Of a stretch of DNA of 64,000 nt, positions 5,594-48,920 are shown one piece after another (the stretch's first letter is position 1; every line of letters starts with the position of its first letter). Origin of the DNA: Bacteroidales bacterium UBA3844 (lineage in GTDB: Bacteria > Bacteroidota > Bacteroidia > Bacteroidales > Paludibacteraceae); NCBI GenBank assembly GCA_002392915.1, contig DGHQ01000006.1, positions 10,631 to 74,630 on the forward strand, given 5' to 3'. The translations under genes and the position numbers were made by a program. The notes under the pieces are model-generated. The model was given only the letters and a program-made list of their open reading frames with translations. It searched no databases and was not told the DNA's origin.

Positions 5594-7372
5594 TCACTCT
5601 TTGATGTCTACCTTCAAGCACAACTCTTCAAGCTGAGCATCATCGATAACTGATGGACAATCCATCATAGTGTCACGACCTGAATTGTTTTTAGGGAATG
5701 CGATACAGTCGCGGATAGAATCCAAACCAGCAAGCATAGACACAACACGGTCAAGACCGAAAGCCAAACCTGCGTGAGGTGGTGCTCCGTATTTGAATGC
5801 TGTCATCAAGCAGCCGAACTGATCCTGAGCCTTTTCCTGTGTAAATCCAAGAAGCTGGAACATCTTGTTCTGCAACTCTGAATCATGGATACGTACACTA
5901 CCACCACCAAGCTCAACTCCGTTCATAGCCAAATCGTATGCGTTAGCGCGTACACGGCCTGGATCAGAGTCAAGATACTGAACATCCTCAAGTTTTGGAC
6001 TTGTGAATGGGTGATGCATAGCGTAGAAACGCTGATCTTCTTCGTTCCACTCGAACAATGGGAAGTCGATAACCCAAAGTGGAGCAAACTTGTTCTTGTC
6101 GCGAAGCTCAAGTCTGTCACCCATTTCTAGACGCAAAGTGTTCATTTGTCCACGAACTTTCATTGCATCGTCGCCACACAAAATCAAAATCAAATCGCCT
6201 GCCTTAGCGTTTGCTTTTTCTGCAATCTTACGCAAAGAAGCCTCGTCGTAGAATTTGTCGACGCTGCTCTTGATTGTGCCGTCTTCCTTCATCTGGATGT
6301 AAACCAATCCTTTGGCACCAACCTGAGGACGTTTTACAAACTCTGTCATCTGGTCTAATTGCTTTCTTGTCCAAGATGCACAACCGTTAGCACAGATAGC
6401 TACAACGAAATTAGCACCGTCGAAAACAGGGAATGAATGGCCAGAAACCAAGTCCTCACCACCTTCTTTTACATTTTTTAGCTCGACAAACTCCATGCCG
6501 AAACGCATATCTGGTTTATCTGAACCAAAACGCTTCATGCATTCATGCCAAGTCAAACGAGGGAATGAATCTGTGAATTCAACGCCTCTTGCATATTTGA
6601 AGATGTGCTTTATCATACCCTCAAACATCTGAAGAACGTCTTCCTGCTCCACGTAACTCATTTCGCAGTCGATCTGAGTAAACTCTGGCTGACGATCAGC
6701 ACGCAAATCCTCATCACGGAAACATTTCACAATCTGGAAATAACGGTCGATACCGCCCACCATCAAAAGCTGCTTAAACTGCTGTGGACTCTGAGGAAGA
6801 GCGTAGAACTGTCCCTGATTCATACGTGATGGCACAACGAAGTCGCGCGCTCCTTCAGGAGTAGACTTGATAAGCACTGGAGTCTCAACCTCTAGGAATC
6901 CCTGAGAGTCAAGGTAGCGGCGAGTCTCAAACGCGATATTATGACGCAATACAAGGTTGTTGAGAACAGGCTTTCTTCTCAAGTCAAGATAACGGTACTG
7001 CATTCTCAAATCGTCACCACCGTCTGAATTATCTTCGATTGTGAATGGAGGCACCTCACTTTTGCTAAGCACCTTCATGTTGTCGGCTATAATCTCAATC
7101 TCACCTGTAGGGATCTGATTGTTCTTGTTGCTACGCTCACAAACCTTACCTGTAACTTGAATGACCCACTCACGACCAATATGGTTAGCCTGAGCTGTAA
7201 GATCTGCATTCTTACCTTCGTCGAACACAATCTGAGTGATACCATAACGATCGCGAAGATCAACGAATGTCATACCACCCATTTTTCTGACTTTCTGTAC
7301 CCAGCCTGCAAGTTTCACCTCGCTGCCTACATTGCTAAGCCTAAGCTCACCACAAGTATTGCTTCTATACAT
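5594..7372 (-). CDS. aspS: aspartate--tRNA ligase
   Basis: 592 aa. It shows N-terminal OB anticodon-binding ([11 protein letters not shown]...[22 protein letters not shown]) and class-II motifs ([38 protein letters not shown]). Confidence 0.95.
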
Positions 7373-7568
7373 AATTTTTATATTCGAATTTCTTTTTCAA
7401 AAACTCCACAAATTTCGCAAAAAAAATCCAATAAAAGTGTATGTGACAAAGATTTTTGAGAAAAAAAAGTATATTTGCATTAAGTATAGTTATTTAGGGA
7501 TTGCAAAGGACGAAAAGTCAGTGTTGCACCCGTATTTTGAGTCGTATTAATAAAAAAACATACAGGTT

Positions 7569-7841
7569 ATGACAGTTGCAGAAATGAAAATTAGTAACAG
7601 GGAAAGGCTTGACAAACTTGAAGCCTTAGACCCAGAAAAGCTGAACGACATTTTGGATTATGTGTTCAGCAAGTTAATATCTATGCCTAATGAGGAGGAA
7701 AAGAAATCAAAGTCTGACATTTCTAAAATTCAAGATAAAGAAGAGTTGCCTTCTTATTTTGGAATCTGGAAAGACAATGGAGACGAAATTAAAGAATTAA
7801 TTTATAAATCAAGAACAAAAAATCAGGAAGTTATTTTATGA
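7569..7841 (+). CDS. putative antitoxin of a PIN/VapC-type TA module
   Basis: Small 90-aa charged ORF. Its stop overlaps the start of the PIN fragment by 4 nt (ATGA at 7838-7841). No recognisable family by eye. Confidence 0.4.
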   Translation: MTVAEMKISNRERLDKLEALDPEKLNDILDYVFSKLISMPNEEEKKSKSDISKIQDKEELPSYFGIWKDNGDEIKELIYKSRTKNQEVIL

Positions 7842-8026
7842 ATGTATTGTTAGACACATGTGCTTGCATTGAAATTCTGAAAGGCAATATGAATGTTTAT
7901 AGAATTGTTAAGTCTCTTTCAAATAGCCAAAGATTAGTCTCGGAAATCACAGTCGCTGAATTAATGTTTGGTGTAGAACTTTCTAAAAGAAAGGTTTTTG
8001 AACAACAAAAAGTCAATGATTTTTGA
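7838..8026 (+). pseudogene. truncated PIN-domain (VapC-like) toxin remnant
   Basis: 62 aa starting MNVLLDTCACIEILKG, the PIN N-terminal acidic motif. Full-length VapC is about 130 aa. A PIN-like continuation (..IRRFAKEKARLQKT*) appears in another frame just downstream and then stops. Confidence 0.55.
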
Positions 8027-16979: not shown

Positions 16980-17297
16980 ATGAATCACGACAAAGAAATA
17001 GAACAAGGTTTGCTCAACATTGCAAAAAAAAACTCAGGCTTAGCCAAGTTCATATTGTTTGGATCAAGAGCAAGAGGTGACGCTCGCTCTGATTCAGACT
17101 GGGATATTCTTGTCGTTATCAACACAGACAAAATCAGACACGAAGACTATTGCAAATTTGCTGATCCATTCTACGATTTAGGTTTACAATACGACGCTGT
17201 AATCAACCCAATTCTACAAACATCTGAAAACTGGACAAAATTTTCATATCTTCCTCTGTTTAAGAATATACAAAAAGAAGGGAGAATACTATGCTGA
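16980..17297 (+). CDS. nucleotidyltransferase (MNT) antitoxin-like protein
   Basis: 105 aa with the minimal NTase motif LFGSRARGDARSDSDWDILVV. Confidence 0.8.
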   Translation: MNHDKEIEQGLLNIAKKNSGLAKFILFGSRARGDARSDSDWDILVVINTDKIRHEDYCKFADPFYDLGLQYDAVINPILQTSENWTKFSYLPLFKNIQKEGRILC

Positions 17298-17692
17298 CAG
17301 AAGAAGAAAGACAAGCTATCGTAACATACAGATTGGAGAAAGCAGAAAATGCGTTAAAACAAGTGGAAGCAAATATTGCCAATGAATTTTGGGATTTGAT
17401 TGCCAACAGATTATACTATGCTGCATATTATGCAGTTACAGCCTTGTTAATCAGTGAAAATCACGAAACGCATACACACAATGGTGTAATAACAATGTTT
17501 GGACTTCATTTTGTAAAAACTGATAAATTCACAAAAGAAGATCATAGATTATACCAACGTCTTTTCACACAAAGACAAACTGGAGACTACAGTGATAACT
17601 TCTTTCTTGATAAGGAGGATGTAATGCCCCAAATCGAACCTACAAAAAAATTTATCAAGAAAATTTCTGATTACTTATCAGAAAAGCATTAG
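17291..17692 (+). CDS. HEPN-domain protein (toxin partner of MNT)
   Basis: 133 aa, helical, with ANRLYYAAYYAVTALL and ...RQTGDY characteristic of HEPN. It overlaps the MNT gene by 7 nt. Confidence 0.8.
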   Translation: MLTEEERQAIVTYRLEKAENALKQVEANIANEFWDLIANRLYYAAYYAVTALLISENHETHTHNGVITMFGLHFVKTDKFTKEDHRLYQRLFTQRQTGDYSDNFFLDKEDVMPQIEPTKKFIKKISDYLSEKH

Positions 17693-17726: not shown

Positions 17727-19544
17727 TTACGCGATTACAATTCTTCTCACAAAATCGCTCTTTTTAAACGAAGGTATTGTGCCGATAACAAAATTATCTT
17801 CCTGCATATCACAGACGTAATAAACATCATCGTTATAAGAGAATACGTCGTTGCGTAATGCACCACACAAATCTTTGCAGACATTTTCTTTTTCCGCCAC
17901 TTCCAATGCCACTCGTCCATCTCGAGTCTGAAGTATATTAACTTTATAATCCATTGTGGTATAGATTGTTGCGGCAAGCATCGCACGATCCATCGCTGTG
18001 GCTTTTTTACTATAAAGTATCTCTTCTGCAGAACGAAGTCTACCTGCAGTCAAACTATTCTCTACCCTTTCAAACGACTCTCTGTCTTGCACAAAATCAA
18101 AAATCATCTGCATTCTCTGCACACTCGACAATCCTCGTTCAATTGTGATATTATCGATAAACCAACAAATCTTCTTAATATGAATGGAATCTTTCTCCTC
18201 TTCCACAAAATATCTTGCGACATCGGCAGGATCTCCGTCGGAATTCAACAATTCAGAATTGTTGTAATTCTGTGTCAATCTTGCCATTTCGGATCTATCA
18301 AATTTCAGACGTAACAGCAACTTGTTGTTGGTATTAACTCCTGAGATTGTCCAATCGTAATGGTTGATGGCAAACAATGCAGGGTTTGGATTAGGATCAT
18401 CCGCCCCGTCGTCGACTTTATTATCATCAACTTCATTTTGCTTTAACATCGGCAATAAAGGATCATCAACTTTCCATGGCTTGAAATTTTTCTTTTTAAA
18501 AGAACTCCAAGTGATTATAAATAAAAAAAACAAAATAATCCAATTGAGATCCACAGATGTATAGAAATATAGACCAACAAGCAAAAAGAATGACATAGCA
18601 AATAATGGACCGTTCATACCAGTCCATCTATTCAATAGACTCAAAAACTGGGTGAATTTTGTATTCTTGAAAGACAATTCGACATGAATTTCATGCATGA
18701 TAAACCAAATGAGTCCAAATGTCAACGACATAGCAATTCCATGAGGAAGAAATCTTATTGTACACTTGTCGTCTGCAGGATAAGGGATAAATAATTCCTT
18801 AAGAATAAACACCACGATGAATATCATGAGTGAAATGAAACATGTATCATTAATTGATGGTTTATGACGTGAATATCCTCCATCTGTCACAGTTGTGTCT
18901 AGTCGTTTACGGATATCTTCTTTGATGGCAAGGTATCCACACAACAACTTTCGCATAGGAAACAATTTGTCCACATCCTTTTTTTGTTTTCCAAACTCCC
19001 GGATTTTGTAGACTTCTGTTTCTTCAGCTTTTGTTTCAGAACTGTTTTTCGCTCCCTCCACTCCATCTTCTGGTAGAAGATCCACCTCATCTGGCACAAC
19101 CAATTCAGTCTCTGATGATGGCTTTGTAATAGTAGCTATATAATTATAACGAGAGAAAAAAGCTGCCCCCCAATCTTTTATCGTCTCAAAAGACAATTTT
19201 CCAGCAGATTCATCTGATCCTGTCACTCCGACCATGCATCCTTTGAACACCTCATCGTTCACTATCCAAGATTCGACAGGTTCATAATCGACAACATCGT
19301 CGTCTTCAAATGTCTTTCTTATATGAAGCTCTGCCTTATTATTCTTGATATAGATATGTCCGATTGGATTAACCGTACGTGGGAAATGTCCATCATATAT
19401 GGCAAAAGAATCATCCTCACGTACAATCTTACATTTTTCAGCAATTGCACGTGGCCATAATTTGTACCATATAAAGCAAGCCAACGCATATAGTAGCGTC
19501 GGAATCAGGATTCCTCCCAATATCATCAATATTAGATCACTCAT
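17727..19544 (-). CDS. uncharacterised polytopic membrane protein (gene 4 of the VWA/tubulin-like operon)
   Basis: 605 aa with an N-terminal TM (aa 4-28), a soluble ~200-aa region, four TMs (aa ~234-348), and a ~250-aa C-terminal soluble domain. Its start overlaps the upstream stop by 4 nt (ATGA at 19541-19544). Confidence 0.7.
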   Translation of the reverse strand: MSDLILMILGGILIPTLLYALACFIWYKLWPRAIAEKCKIVREDDSFAIYDGHFPRTVNPIGHIYIKNNKAELHIRKTFEDDDVVDYEPVESWIVNDEVFKGCMVGVTGSDESAGKLSFETIKDWGAAFFSRYNYIATITKPSSETELVVPDEVDLLPEDGVEGAKNSSETKAEETEVYKIREFGKQKKDVDKLFPMRKLLCGYLAIKEDIRKRLDTTVTDGGYSRHKPSINDTCFISLMIFIVVFILKELFIPYPADDKCTIRFLPHGIAMSLTFGLIWFIMHEIHVELSFKNTKFTQFLSLLNRWTGMNGPLFAMSFFLLVGLYFYTSVDLNWIILFFLFIITWSSFKKKNFKPWKVDDPLLPMLKQNEVDDNKVDDGADDPNPNPALFAINHYDWTISGVNTNNKLLLRLKFDRSEMARLTQNYNNSELLNSDGDPADVARYFVEEEKDSIHIKKICWFIDNITIERGLSSVQRMQMIFDFVQDRESFERVENSLTAGRLRSAEEILYSKKATAMDRAMLAATIYTTMDYKVNILQTRDGRVALEVAEKENVCKDLCGALRNDVFSYNDDVYYVCDMQEDNFVIGTIPSFKKSDFVRRIVIA

Positions 19545-22090
19545 GCCTTGTATTCGTAATTAATTCCTCCTAGTTCATCCCACGGAGTAAAGTCTTCTTC
19601 TGTTGAATCGCCAATATATTGTCTGAAAAGCTCATCTTTGTATGAAGACGGTACTTCTTGATTCTGTTTTTCATCCTCTTCATAATTACACTTTAGTCGC
19701 CAATCTATCTGGTCTTCAACCTTTTGCCATGTCACGACAAATAAATAAGGATCTGTCTCATGATGTTTGCAAACCAACGGTCCGACTTCATATCTGCGTG
19801 CTTCATCCATCTCAAACAGTTCATGTCTGGCTTTCGCCGCAAACTCTTTGTCGGCAGCACGAAGAAGCATAGGCTCCTCATCATTCGTAGTTACAAACAT
19901 TCCGTTTAACTCTGCCATCTTGTAAAGAGGACGGAATGTGATGCTGTCGCCATAATCACGGTGGAAATCGGCGAAGTCTTTTGGCACATTCGGCAGATTG
20001 TCCGTGAAACATTTCGCTATGCGACGATGCAACATCTCATAATCCTCATCAGCTTTTTCTGCTTCAAAATCAGCGTCTTCCTTGCCAAACAAACGGTTTC
20101 CAGGAAGTGTCACAATCTCAGATATGAATTTGTCTGCAAACAAATTCTGCAACATATCCTTGTAGTCTGTCTTCGTAAGTTCAGACAATTTACGCGTCTT
20201 ACGATTCAAATAAAGCATCGGCTCAACCAGTTCCGGATTCTTCACCAACGTCTCTCCTCCAAACTTTGCTTGTGTCAAATGTTGGTTGAACATTGTCTCC
20301 TTCACATTAACTGTCCACCAATCAGTTTTTTCCATTGCCAACTCATCTTTAGCCTTATCTATAAGCTTCATGACATGTCGTTTCTGCTGTGAACAGAAAT
20401 CGTAGAGATCATTGTAGAGATAATCCACCTGATCCTCATAATCCTGACGCATATTTTTGTTGACTTCAAGCAATGTGTTGGCAAGAAGCATCTTCTTTAA
20501 TTTTCTGACATACTTATAGTTACGAAAATACTTCGTAAACGATGCTATCCACGGAATTATGGCTCCAATTGTCACCCAAACCCATGAATATTCCGGTCTC
20601 ATCACATTATAATAAGTGCTATAAGCAGACAAATCCGTTATTGTAGGAAGTATTTCGTTTAAAAGATAAGGCACGACGTTGATAAGCACAAACACAATCA
20701 CGACACTCAACACTGCTGTCTTAGCGATCAATCCGAGCAACGTCGGTTCAAACTCAATTATGGAACTCAATTCTTTCACCAAATCCAAGTTTCTCTGCTG
20801 GGTTGTTCTGTCCGTGTCATCCTTAAAATCAAGGTAGAAATCTTTGATGAATTCCGGACATTTTACCATATCATCCTTGTCCTCTTTTGCCCGTTCCTTA
20901 TATTTGCAGATCTCTTCTTGCATAGTGTCATAATACGCAAGTGTCTGAGGCAGAGTGACATCCGGATTATATGAACTTCCTATAAAATATGAAGCAGACT
21001 CACGGATTGTACTCGCGGCTCTTTCATAAATTGCCTCACGATTTTTCACCATCGTGTCGACGGATTTGTATCTCAACGAATACGAAATCTGCTGGTGTCG
21101 TTTCACCAATGTGGAAGGAAGATGTTTCAGATATGTCTGGAAATAGTCACGAAGCAGATTGTATCTGTAGAAATTATAAATCGGATGTGGATCAGGATTC
21201 TCATAAAGTTTGTTGAAGACGTCGCCCAAATCGCATCCAGACTTTAGTTTTCCCTCCACTTTAGCCACATTACGCGCGATTTCATCATCGTCCTTGATAT
21301 CATCAGTTATGTAGTCGTAGTTGAGATTTTCATCTCGCACCAACGCTTTCAATATGTTGCGTCGGATATTCCAGGCATACATGTCGTGTTGGGCCTTGCC
21401 ATCGTAGAACACGGATGCGGCGCCAAGTGAATAGTAGCCATTCTGTGTGGCAAGATCATTGCCAAACACTGTGGCGTCGTTATCTCCACAGAAATAGACA
21501 GACAGCATATATTGGAACAGCAGATCAGTCAACTCATTGGTTTGCAGCTGACAATAGAATCTGTTTGCGACATACTGGTTTTCCTGATACAACACGACTC
21601 TGGCAAATTTCTTTTTCTCCATCATCGCATTCAGTTGCTCAAGAAACTCCACACATCTGCGTTTGTGCTGCAAGTCGTGCGACTGGTTGATTGCCTCCTT
21701 CACACATAAAAATCCAGTCTGCTCCAATCCACGATTAAGATGCGTCGAAAGTATATTTCCGAATTTGTCATCCAAAATAGATGGTAACAGATGAAAAATT
21801 TGCTGTGTGAGTTTTTCTTCCGCATTTCCAAGAATACAAACCTGAAGATTGATGAACGGAAATCCCTTTTCAAGGAAATAGTTCACCATACGCTGCCCTT
21901 CCCTCACCGTATATTCGATCATTGCATCAAAAGAATCCTTGTCGGCAATTCCTTTAATGCAACGACGGTTGGCAAGGTTGGTCACACGCCAGCAGTGACG
22001 TTGCTCGCGAGAAAGTTTGCGGAGATTTTCCGCCAACCTCTTGCGAACATCTATATCCTCATTAAGATTTATAACCCAAACAGGTGTCAT
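19541..22090 (-). CDS. uncharacterised large protein with a central TM hairpin (gene 3 of the VWA/tubulin-like operon)
   Basis: 849 aa with two hydrophobic helices at aa ~451-477 and ~501-521, flanked by ~450-aa and ~330-aa soluble regions. The start ATG shares one nt with the TGA of the upstream gene (TGATG at 22090). Confidence 0.7.
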   Translation of the reverse strand: MTPVWVINLNEDIDVRKRLAENLRKLSREQRHCWRVTNLANRRCIKGIADKDSFDAMIEYTVREGQRMVNYFLEKGFPFINLQVCILGNAEEKLTQQIFHLLPSILDDKFGNILSTHLNRGLEQTGFLCVKEAINQSHDLQHKRRCVEFLEQLNAMMEKKKFARVVLYQENQYVANRFYCQLQTNELTDLLFQYMLSVYFCGDNDATVFGNDLATQNGYYSLGAASVFYDGKAQHDMYAWNIRRNILKALVRDENLNYDYITDDIKDDDEIARNVAKVEGKLKSGCDLGDVFNKLYENPDPHPIYNFYRYNLLRDYFQTYLKHLPSTLVKRHQQISYSLRYKSVDTMVKNREAIYERAASTIRESASYFIGSSYNPDVTLPQTLAYYDTMQEEICKYKERAKEDKDDMVKCPEFIKDFYLDFKDDTDRTTQQRNLDLVKELSSIIEFEPTLLGLIAKTAVLSVVIVFVLINVVPYLLNEILPTITDLSAYSTYYNVMRPEYSWVWVTIGAIIPWIASFTKYFRNYKYVRKLKKMLLANTLLEVNKNMRQDYEDQVDYLYNDLYDFCSQQKRHVMKLIDKAKDELAMEKTDWWTVNVKETMFNQHLTQAKFGGETLVKNPELVEPMLYLNRKTRKLSELTKTDYKDMLQNLFADKFISEIVTLPGNRLFGKEDADFEAEKADEDYEMLHRRIAKCFTDNLPNVPKDFADFHRDYGDSITFRPLYKMAELNGMFVTTNDEEPMLLRAADKEFAAKARHELFEMDEARRYEVGPLVCKHHETDPYLFVVTWQKVEDQIDWRLKCNYEEDEKQNQEVPSSYKDELFRQYIGDSTEEDFTPWDELGGINYEYKA

Positions 22091-25000
22091 CAGTCTTTAC
22101 AAGTGAAATCCTCAAATGTCTTGAATTTGTCGTTAAGCACACGCAACATCTCTTTCAATGTCTCCATCTCCTGGAAACTCTGGGCTGTACGTGCATCTCT
22201 GTATTTTGTATCAAGAATTGTCTCGACTTTCTGTTTTGCCTGATTGAATCCCTGAACCAAAATATTGTTGTCCAATGCGTTGACTGCCTGCATATAGCGG
22301 TCGATGAAATTGTCGTAGTGGTCGCTCAAATAGCGTTTTCCAAACTCATTGCTCAACTCTGTGTAGAAGAGATTGCTGTAGCATGGAGTGTATTTGCGTC
22401 CCTTCTCCGCAATGTTGATCTGGATCTTCTTGTCGCCCAAAATCTCAAGCGACAAGTCTGTAGCCCAAACCACCGCATTGTTTTCAATCTCAAATGGTTT
22501 TTGACCATAAACGCCCTCCAAATACGACTTGTCTGGAATGACTACAAATTTTTTCATTGTAGATTCATCGTAGCTGCTTAGAATCATCAGTTTAAGCATT
22601 GCGATAGTTGCGTTTGACGCATCAAGTGGCAACAGACTCTTGATTTCATCCACGTTGCCGCCTGTTCTTGCAAATGCCTGATGGAAATGGTAGTACTCCT
22701 TCTTATCACATTTCTCATACTCCGACTTGATATTATGGTAAGTGCGGTAATACTCGAAATTCATTCCCGTCTTCGCCGTGATGATATAGAACAATTCAGA
22801 ATTGCTATGACCAATAAACTTTTGAGAGCTTGACTCCTGGAAGTTGAAAACCTTCTTTGCGTTGTCTCTATTGTCAGCCACACAGAAATCCCTCTGTTCC
22901 AGAACACCATCCATTTGACCGATGTTGTAAGAGAAGAACAATGTTGGAGCAAGACGTTTTGTCACCTCATCTAGCTGATCTGTAGTAAGTTCGTTGATAA
23001 GATCTGGCAATTTCTTGTCGTACCATCCATTCACGGCCGAATTTCTGCGGCACATCAAGCCAAACGCTTTGTATGCGAAATTCAGAATATCGTCGATTGT
23101 CTTCTCAGCGCTGCGTTCTGTATTGATGAAGAACTTAGATTTCAGAGTTGCCTCGCCATTTTCATCCAATGCCTCCACAATATAGTTGGCAGACTTCAAA
23201 TCTGGCTCAATCTGATTCTTCATTGTATGGAAGAAATCAGTCAACGCTTCTGTAGTAGGCACACGCACATTGCCAGAAACGGCCTCTTTGTCTGGAGTAA
23301 TCAGTTTCTCATAATACTCAGCGAACAAGTTGTCTCGTTTCCAACCGTCGCCATTAGCGAATTCACAAATATTTGGCAGGTAGACGGAAGTGATGTCCTC
23401 TTTCTTTGCTCTGAATGTCTCTGCAAGATTCTTGAAACTCTGTTTTGGTCCCTTCTCGCTCAACAATGCAGTCTTTGCAGCTTCCGACAACGCTCTCAAA
23501 TGACGTGCCACAACGTCCAAGAATCCATTTTCACCGTAGCAGAATGATTTGATAAGTTCAAAAATCTTATTCTCGACTAGAATCTCACGTTTAAGTTCCA
23601 ATCCTCTCTTGTAGACGCTGTAAACATTGGCTATGTCGTCGGCGTTGTTGTTGATGTGAACCATCTCAAGGAAAGTTCTCTCCTCAGCTTTCTCTCTTGC
23701 TGAATCAAGGTCACTTTTCTCCTTGCTGCTTGACGATTTCTCATATTTAGTGTTCTGACGGTTCAATTCGCTCTTTGTCTGCAAGTGCGACGCATAATCT
23801 GCGATGATTGAATCCTGAATCATATCCTTGTCCTTGTCGTAGTGGTTGAACAAAGATGTACACTCTTCATCAAGTCGCTCGACAGCTGCAATTGTATTCT
23901 GAAGTCCGATTTCTGTAACCAAATCCTCGACACATGACCAAATTTTCTGCTCAAGTGCATCTTGTGTCGACTTCTGCAATGCGTCGTTGTCCTGATCTTC
24001 AATCACGTCGGCTAGACTCTGAGTCGTCTTCTTGACTGCAGAATTCATCTTGCCGGCATCAAACTTGTCCACTCGTTTGTCGCCCTCTATCACACCTGCT
24101 CGCGACTCTGAGAAGTTAGTCTTGATAGCCTGAGTCATCTGATTGCGGATTTCGCTGAAATAGTTGTTATCTCCATCAGGATTAAGCACATAGGCATTGA
24201 TAGTGTCCTTGATTAGATTCTCGACAACTTTATTCAAGTCCACTTTATTTGCCTTGTCGTTGACTGACTTTCCAAGGATACAGTGTTCAAGCAAATCAGC
24301 CTGAATACGGCATTTCATATAGTCGTCGAAATCAGTGCTTGGCTTCTTCAACGCCACATATCCCATCGGAAGTAGGAAATTCTTCTCAGTGCCAGGAGCC
24401 ACCTCTCCGTCGCGAGTGTTATCCATGAACGACTCAAAACCTCTTGCACCTGGGCCATCGTGAAGATAACATAGAAGTTCAGCTGTATTCGAATACATGC
24501 TGTCAAGATTACCTAGGTTGTTGCCAGCCTCTGTCTGGAAATCAACAGGAATCAAGGCTTCAAATGGTCTGTATGGTAGCGACGTGTTGATGCGCGAATA
24601 ACGGTCGTTCAATGCGAGACGGTGGAACAAAGTGGCTGTCTCTGGCTTCTTCGACCATGCCATCTCCGCCTCCAACTCTGACATAACGGCAAACGCATTG
24701 CGTGGATACTTCTCATTGCGTCCGTTGTGGTCGATATACCACTGCGGCATATACATTGTAAGGATAACCTTTGGATCTGCTTCGTCGATTGTTGCCTTGT
24801 GCATCATGTTCACGAAATACAACACATCGTTGATGATACCTGAACCTGTGCCTCCCAAACTTGAACAAACGACCCAGTAGCATACCGTGTTGTTGTCGGC
24901 AGCGTTGTCCTCTATCTTATTCAAATCCTGAATATTCTTCACAAGTTTCTCACAAAACTGATCGGCAAGACGGGCGAATGCGGTACGTGATTTCAAACGA

Positions 25001-25398
25001 AATGCTCCGGCTCCAAATTTCAAAGCTCGGTTATCCATGTGCATAGCCACCTCGTCATCACAAGCCTCTATGATACGCTTGTTGATCTGGATCTCCTGCG
25101 CCGCCTTAGCCTTTTGGTAGATGACGTAAGGATTCTGGGTTCCAAGGTTTATAAGCTCATTCGTGGAAAGCATTTTCACACGTCCGTTCTCATATTTAGT
25201 ACGGAATTTTTCATTAAGGTTGTCAATGTCTCCGGCGTCAGTGTCGATGAACATAAAACGATAGTTGTCATTCATCACGTCAACCTTACTACGGTTGCCA
25301 CTGACATTCTGAAGGCTTTCATACACCTTCATCTTGATTAGAGCCACAGTCTTCGAGCCTGCACCTCCACAGCCGATAAAAATATGTTTTCTTGCCAT
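22090..25398 (-). CDS. FtsZ/tubulin-superfamily GTPase-like protein with ~900-aa helical extension (gene 2 of operon)
   Basis: 1102 aa and no TM. The N-terminal ~200 aa carry, in order, IGCGGAGSK (T1-like), IDTDAGDI (compare FtsZ NTDAQAL), FGAGAFRLKSR (T3-like) and SSLGGTGSGIIND (tubulin signature GGGTGSG-like T4). Confidence 0.75.
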   Translation of the reverse strand: MARKHIFIGCGGAGSKTVALIKMKVYESLQNVSGNRSKVDVMNDNYRFMFIDTDAGDIDNLNEKFRTKYENGRVKMLSTNELINLGTQNPYVIYQKAKAAQEIQINKRIIEACDDEVAMHMDNRALKFGAGAFRLKSRTAFARLADQFCEKLVKNIQDLNKIEDNAADNNTVCYWVVCSSLGGTGSGIINDVLYFVNMMHKATIDEADPKVILTMYMPQWYIDHNGRNEKYPRNAFAVMSELEAEMAWSKKPETATLFHRLALNDRYSRINTSLPYRPFEALIPVDFQTEAGNNLGNLDSMYSNTAELLCYLHDGPGARGFESFMDNTRDGEVAPGTEKNFLLPMGYVALKKPSTDFDDYMKCRIQADLLEHCILGKSVNDKANKVDLNKVVENLIKDTINAYVLNPDGDNNYFSEIRNQMTQAIKTNFSESRAGVIEGDKRVDKFDAGKMNSAVKKTTQSLADVIEDQDNDALQKSTQDALEQKIWSCVEDLVTEIGLQNTIAAVERLDEECTSLFNHYDKDKDMIQDSIIADYASHLQTKSELNRQNTKYEKSSSSKEKSDLDSAREKAEERTFLEMVHINNNADDIANVYSVYKRGLELKREILVENKIFELIKSFCYGENGFLDVVARHLRALSEAAKTALLSEKGPKQSFKNLAETFRAKKEDITSVYLPNICEFANGDGWKRDNLFAEYYEKLITPDKEAVSGNVRVPTTEALTDFFHTMKNQIEPDLKSANYIVEALDENGEATLKSKFFINTERSAEKTIDDILNFAYKAFGLMCRRNSAVNGWYDKKLPDLINELTTDQLDEVTKRLAPTLFFSYNIGQMDGVLEQRDFCVADNRDNAKKVFNFQESSSQKFIGHSNSELFYIITAKTGMNFEYYRTYHNIKSEYEKCDKKEYYHFHQAFARTGGNVDEIKSLLPLDASNATIAMLKLMILSSYDESTMKKFVVIPDKSYLEGVYGQKPFEIENNAVVWATDLSLEILGDKKIQINIAEKGRKYTPCYSNLFYTELSNEFGKRYLSDHYDNFIDRYMQAVNALDNNILVQGFNQAKQKVETILDTKYRDARTAQSFQEMETLKEMLRVLNDKFKTFEDFTCKD
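24838..24855 (-). other. tubulin-signature-like T4 loop codons (GGTGSG)
   Basis: The reverse complement reads gga ggc aca ggt tca ggt, within VVCSSLGGTGSGIIN. Confidence 0.7.
25354..25374 (-). other. T1-like glycine loop codons (GCGGAGS) of the tubulin-like protein
   Basis: The reverse complement reads ggc tgt gga ggt gca ggc tcg. Confidence 0.7.
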
Positions 25399-25465
25399 AT
25401 ATTATGTGTATTTTTTTCTAATTAATTTTTATTTAGCATTTTGCTTTTATAATTCCTAATTTTCC

Positions 25466-27121
25466 TCACACGTTTCCATCAATATCAAGATTGATGTCTT
25501 TTCCTCCACGCGGATCCCTGATCTGCAAAGGAATCGTAGTGGAATATTTGATGGTTGATGAGCCGCCCGACGTGTAGTCGTCACCTCCGTTCAAACTGTA
25601 TTCCTGTGAATTGGTGACAGTAACTTCATATTTTGGCTCGATGCTCCAATGAAGAATCGGAACAAATAGTTTTGCTATATATTTCTTCTGTTTGAAGACG
25701 ACGTTGCATTCCGCTTTCTCCACATCAATTGTGAGATTGCTCACACGTCCGTTGATCTCCTCTGTGCAGATTTTTTTAGTTCCCTGAGTGAGTATGTATT
25801 CACCGCGAAGTTTATACTTGTCGCTGCAATTACGCTTAATGCAATAAATCACACTTAATATGTAGATAATAATAAGTATCCACATTATACAATACCATTT
25901 GAATGCCATCGGATGACAGAACACATTTTCCTGTGGCAACTCTATGCTTGCCTCAATTGTTTGGTTATCCTTACCCATCAGTTTGATCAACTCAGCCTCG
26001 TATGGCACTTTGAATGAGATGTGAGCCTTCAATCTTCCGTTAGGTTTCTCAAAGTGTGGATTAAAGAGATTCTCATCGTTTCCACGGATCTGCGCAATAT
26101 TGACAAATGACTCTTCACTTCCGTCGCTACTCATCAAATGAGGCAGTTTCAACTCCGGATGATCCTCACACTCATCTTCATCAGCCATCACAAGATGCAT
26201 TCTGCGGTCGGTGATGGAAATGGAGTCGAGAGTAATCGCGTCGAACACATCGTTTGGAACCCACGACATTGTCATCGACATATGTCCGTCTATATCCACG
26301 TCGACGGAATTGATAGTTGCTCCAGCCTCCTGGGTCATCTTGCCAATCAAAAACTGTTTGAATTTTTCAAGTGCGATGTCATTCTTCATCTGGTCAAACC
26401 AGCTTTGCAAAGCCTGTTCGTTTGAGACAGGAATAGTCTGAGGCTTAAACATGGAGAAAGCATTCATTATATCATCAGTGCTCGTCTCCCCACTACCCAT
26501 CTTTGGCAATTCCAATGCCACAAGTTTGATATTTTTTCCTGCCAATTCCTTTTCGATTCTCGAACGGTAATCATCCAGACGAAGTTTCTTTGGATGTCCG
26601 GCGACGGGATCATTAAGAAAATCGGTGATAAGAAACACAAATTTCAGATTATTTCTGCCAGTGCGTGTAAGGTCTTTTTCAAGATACTCAAGCATATTGA
26701 GCAGGTCTGTATAGGCAGTGAATTTTTTTCTTTCTTCAGCCGACGCTGGTTTGTCATACACACGGTCGGCATAGCTGACAAGGCTCTGTCTCATTGCTGA
26801 ATTCACGATTCCGAAACCGTTTGGCTCATTCTTTGCCTCGCCTCCAAACTTGATGACTGATACATAATCACCGTCCTGAACGGAGCGAAAAAAACTTTTT
26901 AGAGCAGGAACTACGATTTTTTCATATTTGTTCATTGTTCCAGACACATCAATAGCGAAGACATAATCAGCGTGTTCATTTTTAAGTTCTTCGCCGAATT
27001 TCTTCATTAGTTCAGGAAAATCATTTGCCAACGCATCGAAAGCACGGTTATCTTGTGCGGTAGACGTTGCAAATCCAAGCATCAGCAACAGAACAGATAT
27101 GTATAATCTAATCAATTTCAT
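25466..27121 (-). CDS. secreted, membrane-anchored von Willebrand factor A (VWA) domain protein (gene 1 of operon)
   Basis: 551 aa with Sec signal MKLIRLYISVLLLMLGFATSTAQD. VWA MIDAS residues are complete: DVSGT (aa 58-62), T at YTDL, D at LITDF. A single TM sits at aa ~406-429, followed by a ~120-aa beta-rich tail. Confidence 0.75.
   Translation of the reverse strand: MKLIRLYISVLLLMLGFATSTAQDNRAFDALANDFPELMKKFGEELKNEHADYVFAIDVSGTMNKYEKIVVPALKSFFRSVQDGDYVSVIKFGGEAKNEPNGFGIVNSAMRQSLVSYADRVYDKPASAEERKKFTAYTDLLNMLEYLEKDLTRTGRNNLKFVFLITDFLNDPVAGHPKKLRLDDYRSRIEKELAGKNIKLVALELPKMGSGETSTDDIMNAFSMFKPQTIPVSNEQALQSWFDQMKNDIALEKFKQFLIGKMTQEAGATINSVDVDIDGHMSMTMSWVPNDVFDAITLDSISITDRRMHLVMADEDECEDHPELKLPHLMSSDGSEESFVNIAQIRGNDENLFNPHFEKPNGRLKAHISFKVPYEAELIKLMGKDNQTIEASIELPQENVFCHPMAFKWYCIMWILIIIYILSVIYCIKRNCSDKYKLRGEYILTQGTKKICTEEINGRVSNLTIDVEKAECNVVFKQKKYIAKLFVPILHWSIEPKYEVTVTNSQEYSLNGGDDYTSGGSSTIKYSTTIPLQIRDPRGGKDINLDIDGNV
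26936..26950 (-). other. MIDAS DxSxT codons of the VWA protein
   Basis: The reverse complement reads gat gtg tct gga aca = DVSGT. Confidence 0.75.
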
Positions 27122-27267
27122 TTATCGGTTATTCTAAATAATTCAAAAATCCTTTCATTTAATTGACCATCTTTTTACAGATGATACAAACAACTCTTAA
27201 AAATAGTATAAAAAATAATCTCCTACACAACATCATCATAATTTTTATTCACAATTAACATATTTTA

Positions 27268-27283
27268 TGGATTTGCAAATCCA
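27268..27283. promoter_or_regulatory. perfect 16-bp palindrome TGGATTTGCAAATCCA upstream of the VWA/tubulin-like operon
   Basis: The sequence is self-complementary with no loop. It lies ~150 bp upstream of the VWA start (27121) and 45 bp downstream of the TonB-paralog stop. It is a candidate dimeric-regulator operator. Confidence 0.3.
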
Positions 27284-27327
27284 CAAATGTCACGTCAGAC
27301 TAAATACATTCCGTCGCAAATATTAAT

Positions 27328-27993
27328 CTATTTTTTGCTTTCTTCTTGGTTTATTTTGAAAAGGACAGGCAATGTAAATTTAGTACGAACGGTATCACCC
27401 ATCTGTGTGCCAGGCTTCCACTTTGGCATCATGCTCACAACACGTACTGCCTCTTCATCCAAAGCTGGATGGACACCTCGTACGACTTCAACATCTGTGA
27501 TAGTGCCATCTTTTTCAACTGTAAATTTTACAATAACTCTACCTTGAATACTTGAATCTTGTGCTGCCTTGGGATAAACCAAATTAGACTTTAGAAATTC
27601 CATCAGGGCTTTCTGTCCCCCTGGAAATTCAGGACGCCGTTCAACAATTATACCCATTAAATCTTCATCATCATCATCAGTATCAGAAGCGGATATTGTC
27701 ATTGAATCTCCACGATTAGTATTCTCCGTTTCATTGCTGGCTGCGACACTTGAAGCCAACGTCATCACCGTCGCCAAGCCAACAATCTTCACCGCTTTGC
27801 CTGCCATCTTGCGTATATTCAGCTGATTCTCAATATATCGCATCTCAGATTCACACACAGGACATGTACCCATACAATCGCCTTCGTGAGTACACACTCT
27901 TGGTTCGTATGGGATTTCATTGGCATCCGCAATCTGTTTGCGGATGGATTTTAATGTCTCACATGTTTGTTTTCCTTTGTACATAAGCCTCAA
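27328..27993 (-). CDS. TonB C-terminal domain protein with Cys-rich cytoplasmic N-terminal module (paralog 1)
   Basis: 221 aa; the likely start is MYKGKQ at 27984. Cys-rich N-module CETLK..x22..CTHEGDCMGTCPVCE, TM AVKIVGLATVMTLA, and TonB-C (PEFPGGQKALMEFLKSNLVYP...GRVIVKFTVEKDGTITDVEVVRGVHPALDEEAVRVVSMMPKWKPG). Confidence 0.75.
   Translation of the reverse strand: MRLMYKGKQTCETLKSIRKQIADANEIPYEPRVCTHEGDCMGTCPVCESEMRYIENQLNIRKMAGKAVKIVGLATVMTLASSVAASNETENTNRGDSMTISASDTDDDDEDLMGIIVERRPEFPGGQKALMEFLKSNLVYPKAAQDSSIQGRVIVKFTVEKDGTITDVEVVRGVHPALDEEAVRVVSMMPKWKPGTQMGDTVRTKFTLPVLFKINQEESKK
27733..27993 (-). repeat. paralogous N-terminal module, copy 1 (dispersed tandem-gene repeat)
   Basis: By eye, the DNA encoding ...CP.CESEMRYIENQLNIRKMAGKAVKIVGLATVM matches the other two copies closely. 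Confidence 0.6.
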
Positions 27994-28013
27994 TTGTTAT
28001 GTCCGACGGAATA

Positions 28014-28808
28014 TTATTCCATCTCATTAATAGATTTATGACTTCCTTCTGATCCATTTGCTTTGAACAAGATAGGCAAATAATATCTGCTTCTGACAAT
28101 TTTTCCCTTATTCGTCGCAGGAATCCACTTTGGCATCTTGTTCACAAAATTGATAGCCGCTTCATCCAATGCTGGATGAACACTTCGAACGATATCAACA
28201 TTGGTAATAGAGCCGTCTTTCTCAACAACAAAGCCTACAATCACTCGTCCCTGAACACCCCCATCACTAGGATAAACTAAATTATTCTTAATAAATGTCA
28301 TAAGCGAGTCTTTCCCTTGAGGATATTGAGCTTTTTGATCTACTATTGAAAAAATCGCCGTATCTTCTCGTGCTTCATCTATTGCATCCCAGGAATCCAT
28401 TTCCTCTTTAGACGGGTGATACCCAGGACATACAACAATTGGTGGCGGAGGTGTATCTATAGGTTCACTTGTTTCTTCAAGTGATGAATCTGCGGAAACA
28501 GGAATCAATTCTGTTGTGTCAACGGTATTGTTTTCAACAGATGGCTGTGGCTGAGGTTGTTGAGCATCATTACACGCCGACAACGACATCACCGTCGCCA
28601 AACCAACAATCTTCACAGCTTTGCCAGCCATCTTGCGTATATTCAGCTGATCTTCTATATAACGTATCTCCGACTCACATGTAGGACATGTGCCAAGACA
28701 ATCTTCCTCAAGTGCACATTTAATAGGTGCATACGGGATATCATTGGCATCAGCGATTTGCTTACGGATTGCTTTCAATGTCTCACATATTGGTTTTCCT
28801 TGGTTCAT
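28014..28808 (-). CDS. TonB C-terminal domain protein with Cys-rich N-terminal module (paralog 2)
   Basis: 264 aa with the same N-module and TM, a Pro/Gln-rich linker (QQPQPQPS, PPPPIVV), and one TonB-C domain. Confidence 0.75.
   Translation of the reverse strand: MNQGKPICETLKAIRKQIADANDIPYAPIKCALEEDCLGTCPTCESEIRYIEDQLNIRKMAGKAVKIVGLATVMSLSACNDAQQPQPQPSVENNTVDTTELIPVSADSSLEETSEPIDTPPPPIVVCPGYHPSKEEMDSWDAIDEAREDTAIFSIVDQKAQYPQGKDSLMTFIKNNLVYPSDGGVQGRVIVGFVVEKDGSITNVDIVRSVHPALDEAAINFVNKMPKWIPATNKGKIVRSRYYLPILFKANGSEGSHKSINEME
28569..28808 (-). repeat. paralogous N-terminal module, copy 2
   Basis: Same conserved ~80-codon block as at 27733-27993 and 29785-30024. Confidence 0.6.
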
Positions 28809-28848
28809 AATTTTTTTATTTTCGTGGATTATCTACGATTCATCTATA

Positions 28849-30024
28849 TCACTCATCTAACTTGAAAAGAACAGGCAAATTAAACTTTGAACTAACTACC
28901 GTATCCCTGATTGTTGCAGGCTTCCATTTCGGCATCTTTTTAACGACACGAAACGCCTCTTCTTTTAATAATTGATTATCACAAGAAGAATGTATATTTG
29001 ACAAAGCCCCATCTTTTTCTACAACAAACTCCACATTAACACTATAATATTTGCCAGTATCCAGAGGTGTATCATCAGCATAGATAGTATTACCAACTTC
29101 TTTTCTTAAATCACTGCAAATCCAAAATCTACCACCATCAAAATCATACTGATTATCATATAAATAATAAGAGTCCAGTGCTTCCAAATCAGATTTTGAG
29201 TAGACCAAATTTTCTTTTAAAAAATCAAACAATGCCTTTTTTCCACCAGGAAATTCTGGTTGCTTCTCTACTCTTACAAAATACAAATCTCGATCGTCTG
29301 GAATATTGATATTGTAATGATCAAACGTTTTTCGAGGGACAAAAAATCCTAATGATTCATACCTGAAAAATATTGGCACATGGAACTTTGAACATACAGG
29401 CTTGCCATTACACATTGCAGGTTTCCACTTCTCCATTCCCTTCACCACACGAACAGCCTCTTCGTCTAAACATGGATATAGAGTTTTTTTAACCGCAACA
29501 TTTGAAATTGATCCATCTTTCTCAACAATAAAAGAAATCGTGGCCGTACCTTCAATTCCTTCAACCATTGCGGCTTCTTTATAATGTACATTAAATATAA
29601 AATAAAATGCCAGACTATCTGGAGCTACAGCATGTTCCAATGTATCAAACAGATCATTATAATCAGCACATATTTCATCCTCTACAGGAATAAACGGAGT
29701 TTCCCCCTCTCTGTCTCCGATATAGTCATAAACTATTTCTTTTTGATTTAATTCATCAGGAAGTATTGAAACACTATCTGTAATATTACACGCAGACATA
29801 GACATCACCGTCGCCAAACCAACAATTTTCACAGCTTTGCCAGCCATTTTGCGTATATTCAGCTGATTCTCAATATATCGCATCTCAGATTCGCACGCAG
29901 GACATGTGCCCATACAATCGCCTTTGTGTGTACACACTACTGGCTCGTATGGGATCTCATTCGCATCCGCAATCTTCTTACGTATCGCTTTCAATGTCTC
30001 ACATTTATGTTTTCCTTGGTACAT
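28849..30024 (-). CDS. TonB C-terminal domain protein with Cys-rich N-terminal module (paralog 3, two TonB-C-like domains)
   Basis: 391 aa with the same N-module and TM, then two TonB-C-like units (..ISFIVEKDGSISNVAVKK..MEKWKPA.. and ..PEFPGGKKALFDFLKENLVY..VEFVVEKDGALSNI..MPKWKPA..). Confidence 0.7.
   Translation of the reverse strand: MYQGKHKCETLKAIRKKIADANEIPYEPVVCTHKGDCMGTCPACESEMRYIENQLNIRKMAGKAVKIVGLATVMSMSACNITDSVSILPDELNQKEIVYDYIGDREGETPFIPVEDEICADYNDLFDTLEHAVAPDSLAFYFIFNVHYKEAAMVEGIEGTATISFIVEKDGSISNVAVKKTLYPCLDEEAVRVVKGMEKWKPAMCNGKPVCSKFHVPIFFRYESLGFFVPRKTFDHYNINIPDDRDLYFVRVEKQPEFPGGKKALFDFLKENLVYSKSDLEALDSYYLYDNQYDFDGGRFWICSDLRKEVGNTIYADDTPLDTGKYYSVNVEFVVEKDGALSNIHSSCDNQLLKEEAFRVVKKMPKWKPATIRDTVVSSKFNLPVLFKLDE
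29785..30024 (-). repeat. paralogous N-terminal module, copy 3
   Basis: Same conserved block. Long identical runs with copy 1 include ttgcgtatattcagctgattctcaatatatcgcatctcagattc. Confidence 0.6.
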
Positions 30025-48658: not shown

Positions 48659-48920
48659 CTATCTTCTCATCAATGTGAAATGTCCTTCATACAGCTTATC
48701 AATCTCAGGAACATCAAGTATATACCAGTAGTCTGTAGACGGTAATTTTCTGCCATTATACTCACCACTCCATCCATCTGTGTTTCCTTTTTCCTTAAAA
48801 AGTAGTTTTCCAAATCTGTCGTAAATATACAACACTGAATTTGGATAATTTTCTATATTCTCGACTACCCAGTTTTCATCACCTTGGTAGAAATAAATTG
48901 GAAATTCTGGCTCAATAAAT
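48659..48920 (-). other. T9SS type-B sorting (CHU_C-like) C-terminal domain
   Basis: ...NWVVENIENYPNSVLYIYDRFGKLLFKEKGNTDGWSGEYNGRKLPSTDYWYILDVP...GHFTLMRR. Confidence 0.65.

Follow-up and report, generated by a model that had tools for sequence, protein, structure and literature searches.

Which kind of system is formed by four tightly packed genes that join a large tubulin/FtsZ-like protein to an exported von Willebrand factor A (VWA) protein and two membrane proteins, and what might it do at the membrane? These genes, here called g1 to g4, lie on the minus strand of a 64,000-nt stretch of the genome of Bacteroidales bacterium UBA3844 (contig DGHQ01000006.1; the whole stretch is referred to below as the window), for which an initial annotation had proposed a novel envelope-spanning system. 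Domain, structure and neighbourhood analyses identified the locus, with close to complete certainty, as an FtsZl1 (Pfam Tubulin_2)-vWA system, present here as a chromosomal operon in a variant specific to Bacteroidales.

A tubulin/FtsZ-fold protein and its exported VWA partner

The placement of the N-terminal domain of g2 in the FtsZ/tubulin fold, on which the initial annotation had let its proposal stand or fall, was upheld both by profile searches and by structure prediction. The Tubulin_2 family (PF13809) matched g2 with 79.9 bits (cut-off 27, E 2.9e-22) over aa 6-367 and profile positions 1-352 of 356, and was present in all 55 g2 homologues. The T1 glycines G9, G11, G12 and G14, as well as the stretch G182-G187, were invariant in 32 homologues sharing 28-45% identity with the window protein. 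An AlphaFold2 (AF2) model built on a 32-sequence alignment (mean predicted local distance difference test, pLDDT, 85.6; predicted template modelling score, pTM, 0.69) was searched against the PDB with Foldseek, and the top 50 matches were tubulins, CetZ or OdinTubulin only (probability 1.00, E about 1e-5, target-normalised score TMt 0.36-0.44). No transmembrane (TM) segment was found in g2 by hydropathy. As modelled, g2 is thus cytoplasmic and of the tubulin/FtsZ fold, and both of its GTP-binding loops, T1 and T4, are intact.

The general Pfam Tubulin profile (PF00091) scored 25.5 bits, below its cut-off of 33, and covered aa 6-114 only, and neither an FtsZ_C nor a Tubulin_C domain was detected in g2 by the Pfam scan. 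A g2 profile found no tubulin-family chain among PDB sequences at E <= 1, and the single g2 sequence reached FtsZ of M. jannaschii, with T1 and T4 aligned, at a non-significant E of 1.2; the g2 family is therefore highly divergent. To our knowledge, FtsZl1/Tubulin_2 is the most divergent branch of the tubulin superfamily. The region behind the GTPase domain had no recognisable relative in Pfam or among PDB sequences; long helices predicted at aa 388-670 fit the description of FtsZl1, and are followed in the model by a mixed alpha/beta part (aa 670-1010) and a helical end. Candidates for the T7 ('synergy') loop in the 32-sequence alignment were two invariant polar clusters, D286-x-Q-T-E290 and S323..D326-N327..D330. 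MT836542.1, a 9.8-kb 'Bacteriophage sp.' contig that comes from human faeces and carries no annotation, encodes at positions 6946-7923 a protein weakly related to the g2 GTPase domain (E 9e-5, with 24.7% identity across 94% of the query).

For g1, a Sec-exported VWA protein with a complete metal ion-dependent adhesion site (MIDAS), one TM helix and a cytoplasmic tail of about 120 aa had been proposed, and every part of this description was borne out, by a hydrophobic N-terminal signal, matches to the VWA_2 family and hydropathy. VWA_2 was detected in all 24 g1 lineage representatives (best E 5.8e-10); the window copy scored 23.9 bits, slightly below the cut-off of 27 (E 6.8e-5). The MIDAS residues D58-x-S60-x-T62 (D58-V-S60-G-T62 in the window copy), T138 and D167 were conserved in 24 of 24 representatives, with Ser or Thr at the third position, and D58, S60, T138 and D167 were invariant in alignment A6. 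Identity to the orthologue in related locus L003 was 34% (E 2e-81). Since the stretch that follows the TM helix is rich in Lys and Arg, the VWA part, which bears the MIDAS, is predicted to be periplasmic, and the tail formed by the last ~120 aa cytoplasmic.

Conservation and coupling of the four genes

The arrangement described earlier, four co-directional genes with one gap of 67 nt and two overlaps, was reproduced, and all four open reading frames (ORFs) were intact. The 67-nt spacer separates g1 from g2, while the g2/g3 junction GACTGATGACA contains a 1-nt TGATG overlap and the g3/g4 junction GCATGAGTG a 4-nt ATGA overlap; the stop codon of g4 lies 35 nt from a convergent HEPN gene. Of the earlier proposal of one transcript with translational coupling, the tight coupling stood, given the overlapping or abutting ORFs, and a single transcript is suggested by gene packing alone. 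A scan for sigma-70 promoters and terminators returned counts near the shuffled expectation, and the sigma-70 model fits Bacteroidota poorly. The promoters of Bacteroidota are of a type that differs from the sigma-70 type scanned, which makes the sigma-70 scan uninformative.

Related cassettes were sought with subfamily-specific patterns in one genome per species, from 185,579 species. This gave 56 loci, which formed 25 clusters at 80% g2 identity and came from host-associated metagenome-assembled genomes (MAGs) of Paludibacteraceae, Muribaculaceae, Tannerellaceae, Phocaeicola, Prevotellaceae and Cryptobacteroides, plus one Fibrobacter bin. Iterated hidden Markov model searches of all ORFs recovered the order g1-g2-g3-g4 in every related locus with enough DNA, apart from two variants, and in all cassettes the ORF stops and starts overlap or nearly abut. 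The expectation that the four genes should co-occur in other genomes was therefore confirmed, with the same order across about 25 divergent host-associated Bacteroidales lineages. Identity between the window and distant cassettes was 34% for g1, 34-38% for g2, 25-26% for g3 and 23-24% for g4, so that the two membrane proteins (23-26%) diverge faster than g1 and g2 (34-38%). As far as sequence can tell, g1 to g4 are translationally coupled and co-inherited.

Nearer to the window, the MAG 'Bacteroidales bacterium UBA3743' encodes an identical g2, neighbouring genomes are labelled Paludibacteraceae, and about nine related species carry the cassette at the same chromosomal site with 79-96% DNA identity. 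In one of the two variant loci (L042:7946-8941), a second small VWA protein of 332 aa follows g2 in the usual place of g3, with no g3 or g4 before the contig end; in the other (L045:8226-18213), the 10 kb downstream contained no homologue of either g3 or g4. Bins outside Bacteroidales also contained the cassette, namely L038 (Fibrobacter sp.) and L021, L047, L059 and L060 (labelled Lachnospiraceae, Methanomethylophilaceae or Clostridiales). These reflect either horizontal transfer (Fibrobacter) or mis-binned contigs, and the few implausible labels are probably due to mis-binning.

Membrane partners of the tubulin-like protein

Although g3 and g4 had been regarded as orphans that no family name would fit, both could be given a predicted architecture: g3 as a tubulin-like N-terminal domain with a hairpin stalk, and g4 as a membrane protein with a transglutaminase-like C-terminus. 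The g3 family is small, as a search of 1.84 billion representative proteins yielded 61 relatives at E <= 1e-3, and it gave no Pfam or PDB sequence match, including when 26 diverse orthologues were scanned singly. The AF2 model of g3, built on 50 sequences (pLDDT 82.1, pTM 0.69), matched CetZ, FtsZ, TubZ, gamma-, alpha- and beta-tubulin and OdinTubulin in the PDB by Foldseek with probabilities of 0.93-1.00, TMt of 0.26-0.46 and weak E-values (0.008-0.09), the alignments spanning 212-307 columns at root-mean-square deviations of 6-10 Å. High-probability matches in BFVD, an independent viral library, were phage proteins named 'cell division protein', 'tubulin' and 'FtsZ' (0.94-1.00), and the alternating beta-alpha pattern modelled for aa 1-250 fits a nucleotide-binding domain of the tubulin type. 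The glycine-rich T1 and T4 loops and GGGTGSG-type motifs were missing from the g3 family consensus, which reads LWIIDLT.... and VCVLG...E..SQ. A comparison of g3 with g2 by hhalign was not significant (probability <1%), and the sole piece aligned occupies, by eye, apparently the same strand-to-helix position in both models. Based on the predicted structure, g3 probably starts with a second tubulin-like domain devoid of nucleotide loops.

The central TM hairpin that had been noted in g3 was recovered by hydropathy and in the AF2 model, and since a strongly basic stretch follows the second hydrophobic helix, both large domains of g3 are predicted to be cytoplasmic. By its hydropathy profile g3 is anchored in the membrane by this helical hairpin, which in the model would form the tip of a long helical stalk. 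Foldseek matched the stalk to the alpha-pore-forming toxins AhlB, SmhB and MakA, in pore and pre-pore forms, with E-values of 7e-3 to 9e-2, probabilities of 0.23-0.95 and TMt of 0.17-0.31. False matches are common for long helical bundles. The resemblance is weak and is used here as a description of shape only, that is, of a modelled stalk with a membrane-inserted hairpin.

Hydropathy of g4 agreed with the earlier count of one plus four TM segments and large soluble domains, in the order N-terminal TM segment, soluble region of ~200 aa, four TM segments and C-terminal domain of ~250 aa; both soluble parts are predicted to be cytoplasmic. Identity to its orthologues is 23-24% (E 8e-14 and 9e-21). 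An alignment of 25 g4 sequences, which comprised the window copy, other members of its clade and orthologues further away, was scanned sequence by sequence. Transglut_core (PF01841) was detected in 10 of the 25 and DUF553 (PF04473) in 9 (best E 1.2e-8), several larger variants scoring above the Pfam gathering cut-offs for the transglutaminase-like domain. The window g4 itself had no Pfam match, and its homology to the transglutaminase-like domain is drawn from its alignment to the Pfam-matching orthologues. Among PDB chains, sequence and profile searches with g4, as with g2 and g3, produced no more than insignificant or low-complexity helical matches.

In most g4 orthologues the domain reads R[YF]PDETL…GDxDCKAxLAA…HAAxAV…CETTGDGFxIG, and in the window clade …KKATAMDRAMLAA…GRVALEV…CDMQEDNF. 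At the catalytic positions of the window protein (ATAMDRA, GRVALEV and CDMQEDNF), Cys is thus replaced by Asp, His by Arg and Glu by Asp, so that the domain is, judging by these residues, presumably a non-catalytic derivative. It is nevertheless the most conserved part of g4 in the window clade (83-93% identity vs 36-88% elsewhere in g4), and was probably kept there for a non-catalytic role, as a binding module. The His or Cys was lost independently in four other lineages. Two enlarged g4 variants were also observed (L023:8922-12194 and L046:16149-19094), one with an inserted FGE-sulfatase domain (E 9e-29) and one with two transglutaminase-like domains.

A fifth gene (g5) directly follows g4 in most lineages, about 15 (for example, L003:17477-18460). 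Its product, ~320-360 aa long, has a conserved HEMxH motif, weakly matches the zincin families DUF2268, Peptidase_MA_2 and M9, and is predicted to be a membrane-anchored zincin-like metallopeptidase with its catalytic domain held in the periplasm by an N-terminal hydrophobic anchor. The Fibrobacter copy (L038) is without the HEMxH motif. As g5 is absent from the window clade and a few other lineages, the four-gene set of the initial annotation is correct for the co-conserved g1 to g4 and for the window, but most relatives carry the zincin-like gene in addition.

With respect to topology, the term 'envelope-spanning' proved an overstatement, because the VWA ectodomain is the only part of the window cassette that hydropathy and the positive-inside rule place in the periplasm, and because neither the cassette nor any conserved neighbour was seen to supply an outer-membrane component. 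The coordinates of all features are listed in Table 1.

Table 1. Predicted features of the cassette, with positions in the window
Feature	Position	Strand	Basis
Presumed promoter region of the operon	27122..27327	(-)	206 nt upstream of g1; only sizeable non-coding gap adjoining the cassette on its strand
g1, exported VWA/MIDAS protein, one TM, cytoplasmic tail, 551 aa	25466..27121	(-)	VWA_2 in 24/24 family members
g1 VWA domain, aa ~54-225, MIDAS D58xS60xT62, T138, D167	26447..26962	(-)	MIDAS columns conserved, 24/24
g1 transmembrane helix, aa ~405-428	25838..25909	(-)	Hydropathy and K/R-rich sequence after the helix
g1 predicted cytoplasmic tail, ~120 aa	25469-25837	(-)	K/R-rich, positively charged, after the TM
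g2, FtsZl1/Tubulin_2 family, cytoplasmic, 1102 aa	22090..25398	(-)	PF13809, 79.9 bits; AF2 model; Foldseek
g2 tubulin/FtsZ-like GTPase domain, aa 1-375	24274..25398	(-)	Invariant T1/T4 glycines
g2 T1 loop, G9-C-G-G-A-G14	25354-25374	(-)	Aligns with FtsZ T1
g2 T4 signature, G182-G-T-G-S-G187	24838-24855	(-)	Aligns with FtsZ T4
g2 C-terminal two thirds: helical aa ~388-670, alpha/beta ~670-1010, terminal helical bundle	22093..24273	(-)	AF2 secondary structure
g3, membrane protein, 849 aa, small lineage-restricted family	19541..22090	(-)	25-26% identical to orthologues, E ~1e-73
g3 N-terminal domain, aa ~1-300, predicted degenerate tubulin/FtsZ-like fold	21191..22090	(-)	Foldseek PDB and BFVD
g3 helical stalk, aa ~312-584	20339..21157	(-)	AF2 helices 324-371, 380-402, 413-446, 451-484, 499-584
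g3 hydrophobic hairpin at stalk tip, aa ~451-523	20522-20740	(-)	TM prediction and AF2 model
g4, polytopic membrane protein, 605 aa	17727..19544	(-)	Hydropathy, positive-inside rule
g4 TM1, aa 4-26	19467-19535	(-)	Hydropathy
g4 TM2-5, aa ~232-350	18495-18851	(-)	Hydropathy
g4 C-terminal transglutaminase-like (papain-fold thiol peptidase) domain	17730..18182	(-)	Alignment to Pfam-matching orthologues

Relation to described systems

The paper that the initial annotation cited bears directly on the locus: Makarova and Koonin in 2010 (PMC2875224) defined the FtsZl1 family, noted its linkage to vWA genes and to lineage-specific membrane proteins, and proposed a role in membrane remodelling. As this kind of system was predicted computationally at that time and reread as a conflict system in 2020 (PMC7159879), calling the locus 'novel' was too strong; what is new here, and was undescribed before, is the Bacteroidales partner set only (g3, g4 and, in relatives, g5). 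The statement that no function has been shown experimentally was in agreement with a search of a library of open-access full texts, in which no experimental work on FtsZl1/Tubulin_2 or such systems was found. A later phylogenetic study (PMC9871819) merely set the Tubulin_2 group aside.

In common with the FtsZl1 operons of PMC2875224, g2 has an N-terminal FtsZ/tubulin-like domain with T1 and GGTGSG, a length of about 1100 aa and a long helical middle, and its gene lies next to one for a vWA protein that has an intact MIDAS together with a signal peptide or TM segment, further lineage-specific membrane proteins being encoded in the operon. The C-terminal part of g2, modelled as alpha/beta and helical, differs from the mostly helical one of FtsZl1, and the protein kinase, the P-loop GTPase and the OmpA-like gene of those operons are absent from the cassette. 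Whereas partners B1-B9 accompany FtsZl1 in that study, the partners here are a predicted pseudo-tubulin with stalk and hairpin, a transglutaminase-like TM protein and, in relatives, a zincin. The sole true Bacteroides example given there, from B. caccae, consists of three genes (535 aa, 913 aa and a COG4870 cysteine protease), a layout that also differs from the present one.

Kaur, Burroughs, Iyer and Aravind in 2020 (PMC7159879) described tubulin plus vWA neighbourhoods among conflict systems centred on GAP1-N2 GTPases, mainly from Actinobacteria, Firmicutes, Planctomycetes, Verrucomicrobia and Chloroflexi, not Bacteroidales. Shared features are a tubulin-superfamily protein whose C-terminal extension is helical, a membrane-bound vWA protein whose vWA domain lies outside the cell, variable TM-rich partners and an occasional FGE-sulfatase (FGS) domain. 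Their defining GAP1, zinc-ribbon TRAFAC GTPase(s) and FNIII-repeat proteins are absent here; in the cassettes and flanks of the 25 lineages no P-loop GTPase or other recurrent gene was found, no dedicated GAP1 profile having been used. The Firmicutes versions contain two tubulin-domain genes, to which the proposed g2 and g3 pair would be parallel, except that the second tubulin-like domain is here predicted to be without nucleotide loops and fused to a membrane stalk.

More distant analogies may be drawn with FtsZ and its anchors FtsA, ZipA and SepF, in which a GTP-binding tubulin-fold protein is held at the membrane by dedicated anchors, and perhaps with alpha/beta-tubulin, BtubA/B and the gamma-tubulin nucleator, in which an active subunit is paired with a non-exchanging or inactive tubulin-fold subunit. 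The cassette differs from these in the missing FtsZ_C and Tubulin_C domains, in a T7 loop that is not assignable, in an anchor that would itself be tubulin-like, and in being an accessory rather than an essential operon. As in AhlB, SmhB and MakA of the ClyA family, g3 is modelled with a long antiparallel helical bundle and a hydrophobic hairpin at one end, which in the toxins spans the membrane in the pore form; unlike them, g3 would be integral, on the cytoplasmic side and not secreted, with large extra domains, and the partner A or C components are missing. Most g4 orthologues have the Cys...His...Asp/Glu arrangement of Transglut_core/DUF553 peptidases, and the window copy is without the triad and without a Pfam match.

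Possible mechanism and function

The reading of the locus that we tentatively prefer, as plausible but still somewhat short of probable, is that of an inner-membrane complex, rather than an envelope-spanning one, in which a ligand would trigger a GTP-dependent assembly acting on the inner membrane, as an accessory conflict or envelope-stress response rather than as part of housekeeping. The VWA/MIDAS site of g1 would bind a protein or peptide in the periplasm, and the signal, passed through the TM helix and tail, would cause g2 to assemble on the membrane in a GTP-dependent manner. For g2, the g3 pseudo-tubulin domain may serve as the membrane-tethered partner, nucleator or cap, and assembly would act through the stalk and hairpin of g3 and the membrane module of g4, so that the inner membrane is deformed or permeabilised. 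In most relatives, the cytoplasmic transglutaminase-like domain of g4 and the periplasmic zincin g5 could add proteolytic control or output, a step that would have been lost in the window. An accessory conflict or stress role fits better than housekeeping because the cassette is rare, its partners evolve fast and shuffle domains, catalysis was lost repeatedly (catalytic residues of g4 as well as g5, across lineages), and CRISPR genes are occasionally adjacent. In 3 of the 25 lineages, the cassette is directly preceded by a reverse transcriptase (RT)-Cas1 fusion gene, behind which comes a small ORF of 95-110 aa (L021:4868-7174, L037:5722-7995 and L042:384-2705; Pfam domains were scanned in the L021 copy only, and the other two were assigned by BLAST similarity to it), and RAMP and patatin genes lie close to the cassette in a few others. 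The FGE-sulfatase domain inserted in one g4 is typical of the conflict systems of PMC7159879. A more specific version, in which g2 and g3 would be an active/inactive tubulin-fold pair, the inactive member being built into the membrane by a pore-toxin-like hairpin, and VWA-gated GTP-dependent assembly would open or deform the membrane, is considered distinctly unlikely; if true, it would represent a tubulin-powered transmembrane effector, for which there is no characterised mechanistic precedent.

Several observations weigh against the preferred reading. The case for a conflict or stress role is circumstantial, and the stable position in the core genome speaks against it, since inheritance at one chromosomal site in a genus-level clade also fits a physiological role. 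The cassette flanks are mostly housekeeping, with ~90% of genes unrelated to defence. In PADLOC-DB 2.0, g1 had one marginal match (E 0.0066), g2, g3 and g4 had none, and no component fits a defence model; an origin from mobile elements was rejected, as searches of IMG/VR viral contigs and PLSDB plasmids yielded no relatives. At the protein level, GTP binding and polymerisation by g2, and all protein contacts, are inferred, and with the T7 catalytic loop not assignable hydrolysis-coupled dynamics are hypothetical only. The tubulin-like call for g3 comes from a predicted structure with the weak Foldseek E-values given above and from no sequence support, and its likeness to pore-forming toxins is weaker than that call.

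Some of the same observations favour constitutive membrane-remodelling or vesicle-biogenesis machinery, the reading of 2010, in which g2 would polymerise on the anchors g3 and g4 as FtsZ does on FtsA, ZipA and SepF, with the VWA domain holding periplasmic or cell-wall partners. Remodelling was proposed for FtsZl1-vWA operons rich in membrane proteins (PMC2875224), every g2 partner here is a membrane protein, and the cassette occupies one core-genome site, stable in ~9 related species amid housekeeping genes and without a PADLOC match. With 56 loci among the 185,579 species genomes, in few Bacteroidales lineages, it is however too rare and patchy for housekeeping, its partners diverge fast and carry changing domain insertions, and repeatedly inactivated peptidase partners would be unexpected in a shaping machine, so that we regard this explanation as somewhat unlikely. 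Strict abortive-infection immunity, in which the VWA domain would sense a phage component at the surface or in the periplasm, g2 polymerisation would act as a threshold switch and a g3 pore would kill or arrest the cell, is a specific form of the preferred reading, with the pore step as its weakest link. It would account for the classification of tubulin plus vWA among conflict systems (PMC7159879), the weak likeness of the g3 stalk and hairpin to AhlB, SmhB and MakA, the adjoining RT-Cas1 and nearby RAMP and patatin genes, and the FGE-sulfatase insertion in one g4. The missing PADLOC match, flanks of which ~90% are unrelated to defence, a HEPN/MNT neighbour that is variable, the absence of the cassette from mobile elements and the lack of the GAP1 and GTPase core of published systems all speak against it, and it is judged unlikely.

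Peptidase-type partners, of which most relatives have two, could instead point to regulated proteolysis or cross-linking of envelope proteins, in which the VWA domain would present substrates to the zincin and the transglutaminase-like enzyme and g2 would be a scaffold or chaperone, by analogy with MoxR-vWA pairs. The COG4870 cysteine protease gene after the FtsZl1 gene of Bacteroides caccae and the frequent use of VWA domains as peptide-binding co-chaperones are in line with this idea. In the window clade, however, the system is retained although both the zincin and the catalytic Cys and His are missing, so that catalysis seems dispensable for the function selected there, and the transglutaminase-like domain is predicted on the cytoplasmic side, opposite to the periplasmic VWA domain; the idea is very unlikely. 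The same losses, with g5 absent, only 35 nt left before the convergent HEPN gene and the g4 catalytic residues replaced, could mean that the window copy is a decaying, non-functional remnant. This is most improbable in view of four long ORFs that are intact, coupled and retained in ~9 species at 79-96% DNA identity, of a degenerate domain that is the most conserved part of g4 (83-93%), and of the independent absence of g5 or the His in other lineages.

The locus makes the question of what bacterial tubulins do at the membrane outside division directly testable. The cassette is a compact four-to-five-gene version, free of the kinases and GTPases that complicate others, and genetic tools are available for its gut Bacteroidales hosts, among them Phocaeicola, Parabacteroides and Tannerella relatives. 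Two features in particular deserve testing: the pseudo-tubulin predicted as a membrane partner, and the catalytically active and inactive versions that occur in nature, among which variants with and without peptidase residues provide ready-made controls. If real, a nucleotide-free tubulin-like domain on a membrane stalk, as predicted for g3, would hint at how such polymers are tied to membranes and offer a bacterial parallel to active/inactive tubulin pairs.

Flanking genes and other features of the window

A conserved neighbour beyond g5 was sought by comparing 139 flanking proteins all against all and rejected, as almost none recurred between lineages; an NCBIfam scan of the four cassette proteins gave nothing useful. 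Convergent to g4 lies an MNT/HEPN toxin-antitoxin pair (window 16980-17692, plus strand), which the initial annotation had taken as a hint of defence. The pair is present at the site in the window, L005 and L011 and skipped in the close relatives L006, L007 and L013, and the wider window is core genome (GyrA, AspRS, IMPDH, HtrA and GH3). Since it is a variable insertion in otherwise housekeeping surroundings, toxin-antitoxin adjacency is weak evidence for defence, and the pair was discarded as functional context because the three close relatives named above do not have it there.

Three tandem paralogous TonB_C genes (221, 264 and 391 aa) occupy window positions 27328-30024 on the minus strand, directly upstream of the cassette, in a stretch that is rearranged among close relatives. 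Further along the same strand, a tight cluster (40324-44516) comprises genes for a 416-aa protein with an FGE-sulfatase domain and a 555-aa AAA ATPase, and ORFs of 273 and 150 aa; because FGE-sulfatase domains occur also in some g4 variants, this cluster could represent a further uncharacterised system. Also on the minus strand, at 48659-53860, lies the gene for a 1733-aa protein that contains many Ig-like repeats and ends in a CHU_C type IX secretion signal.

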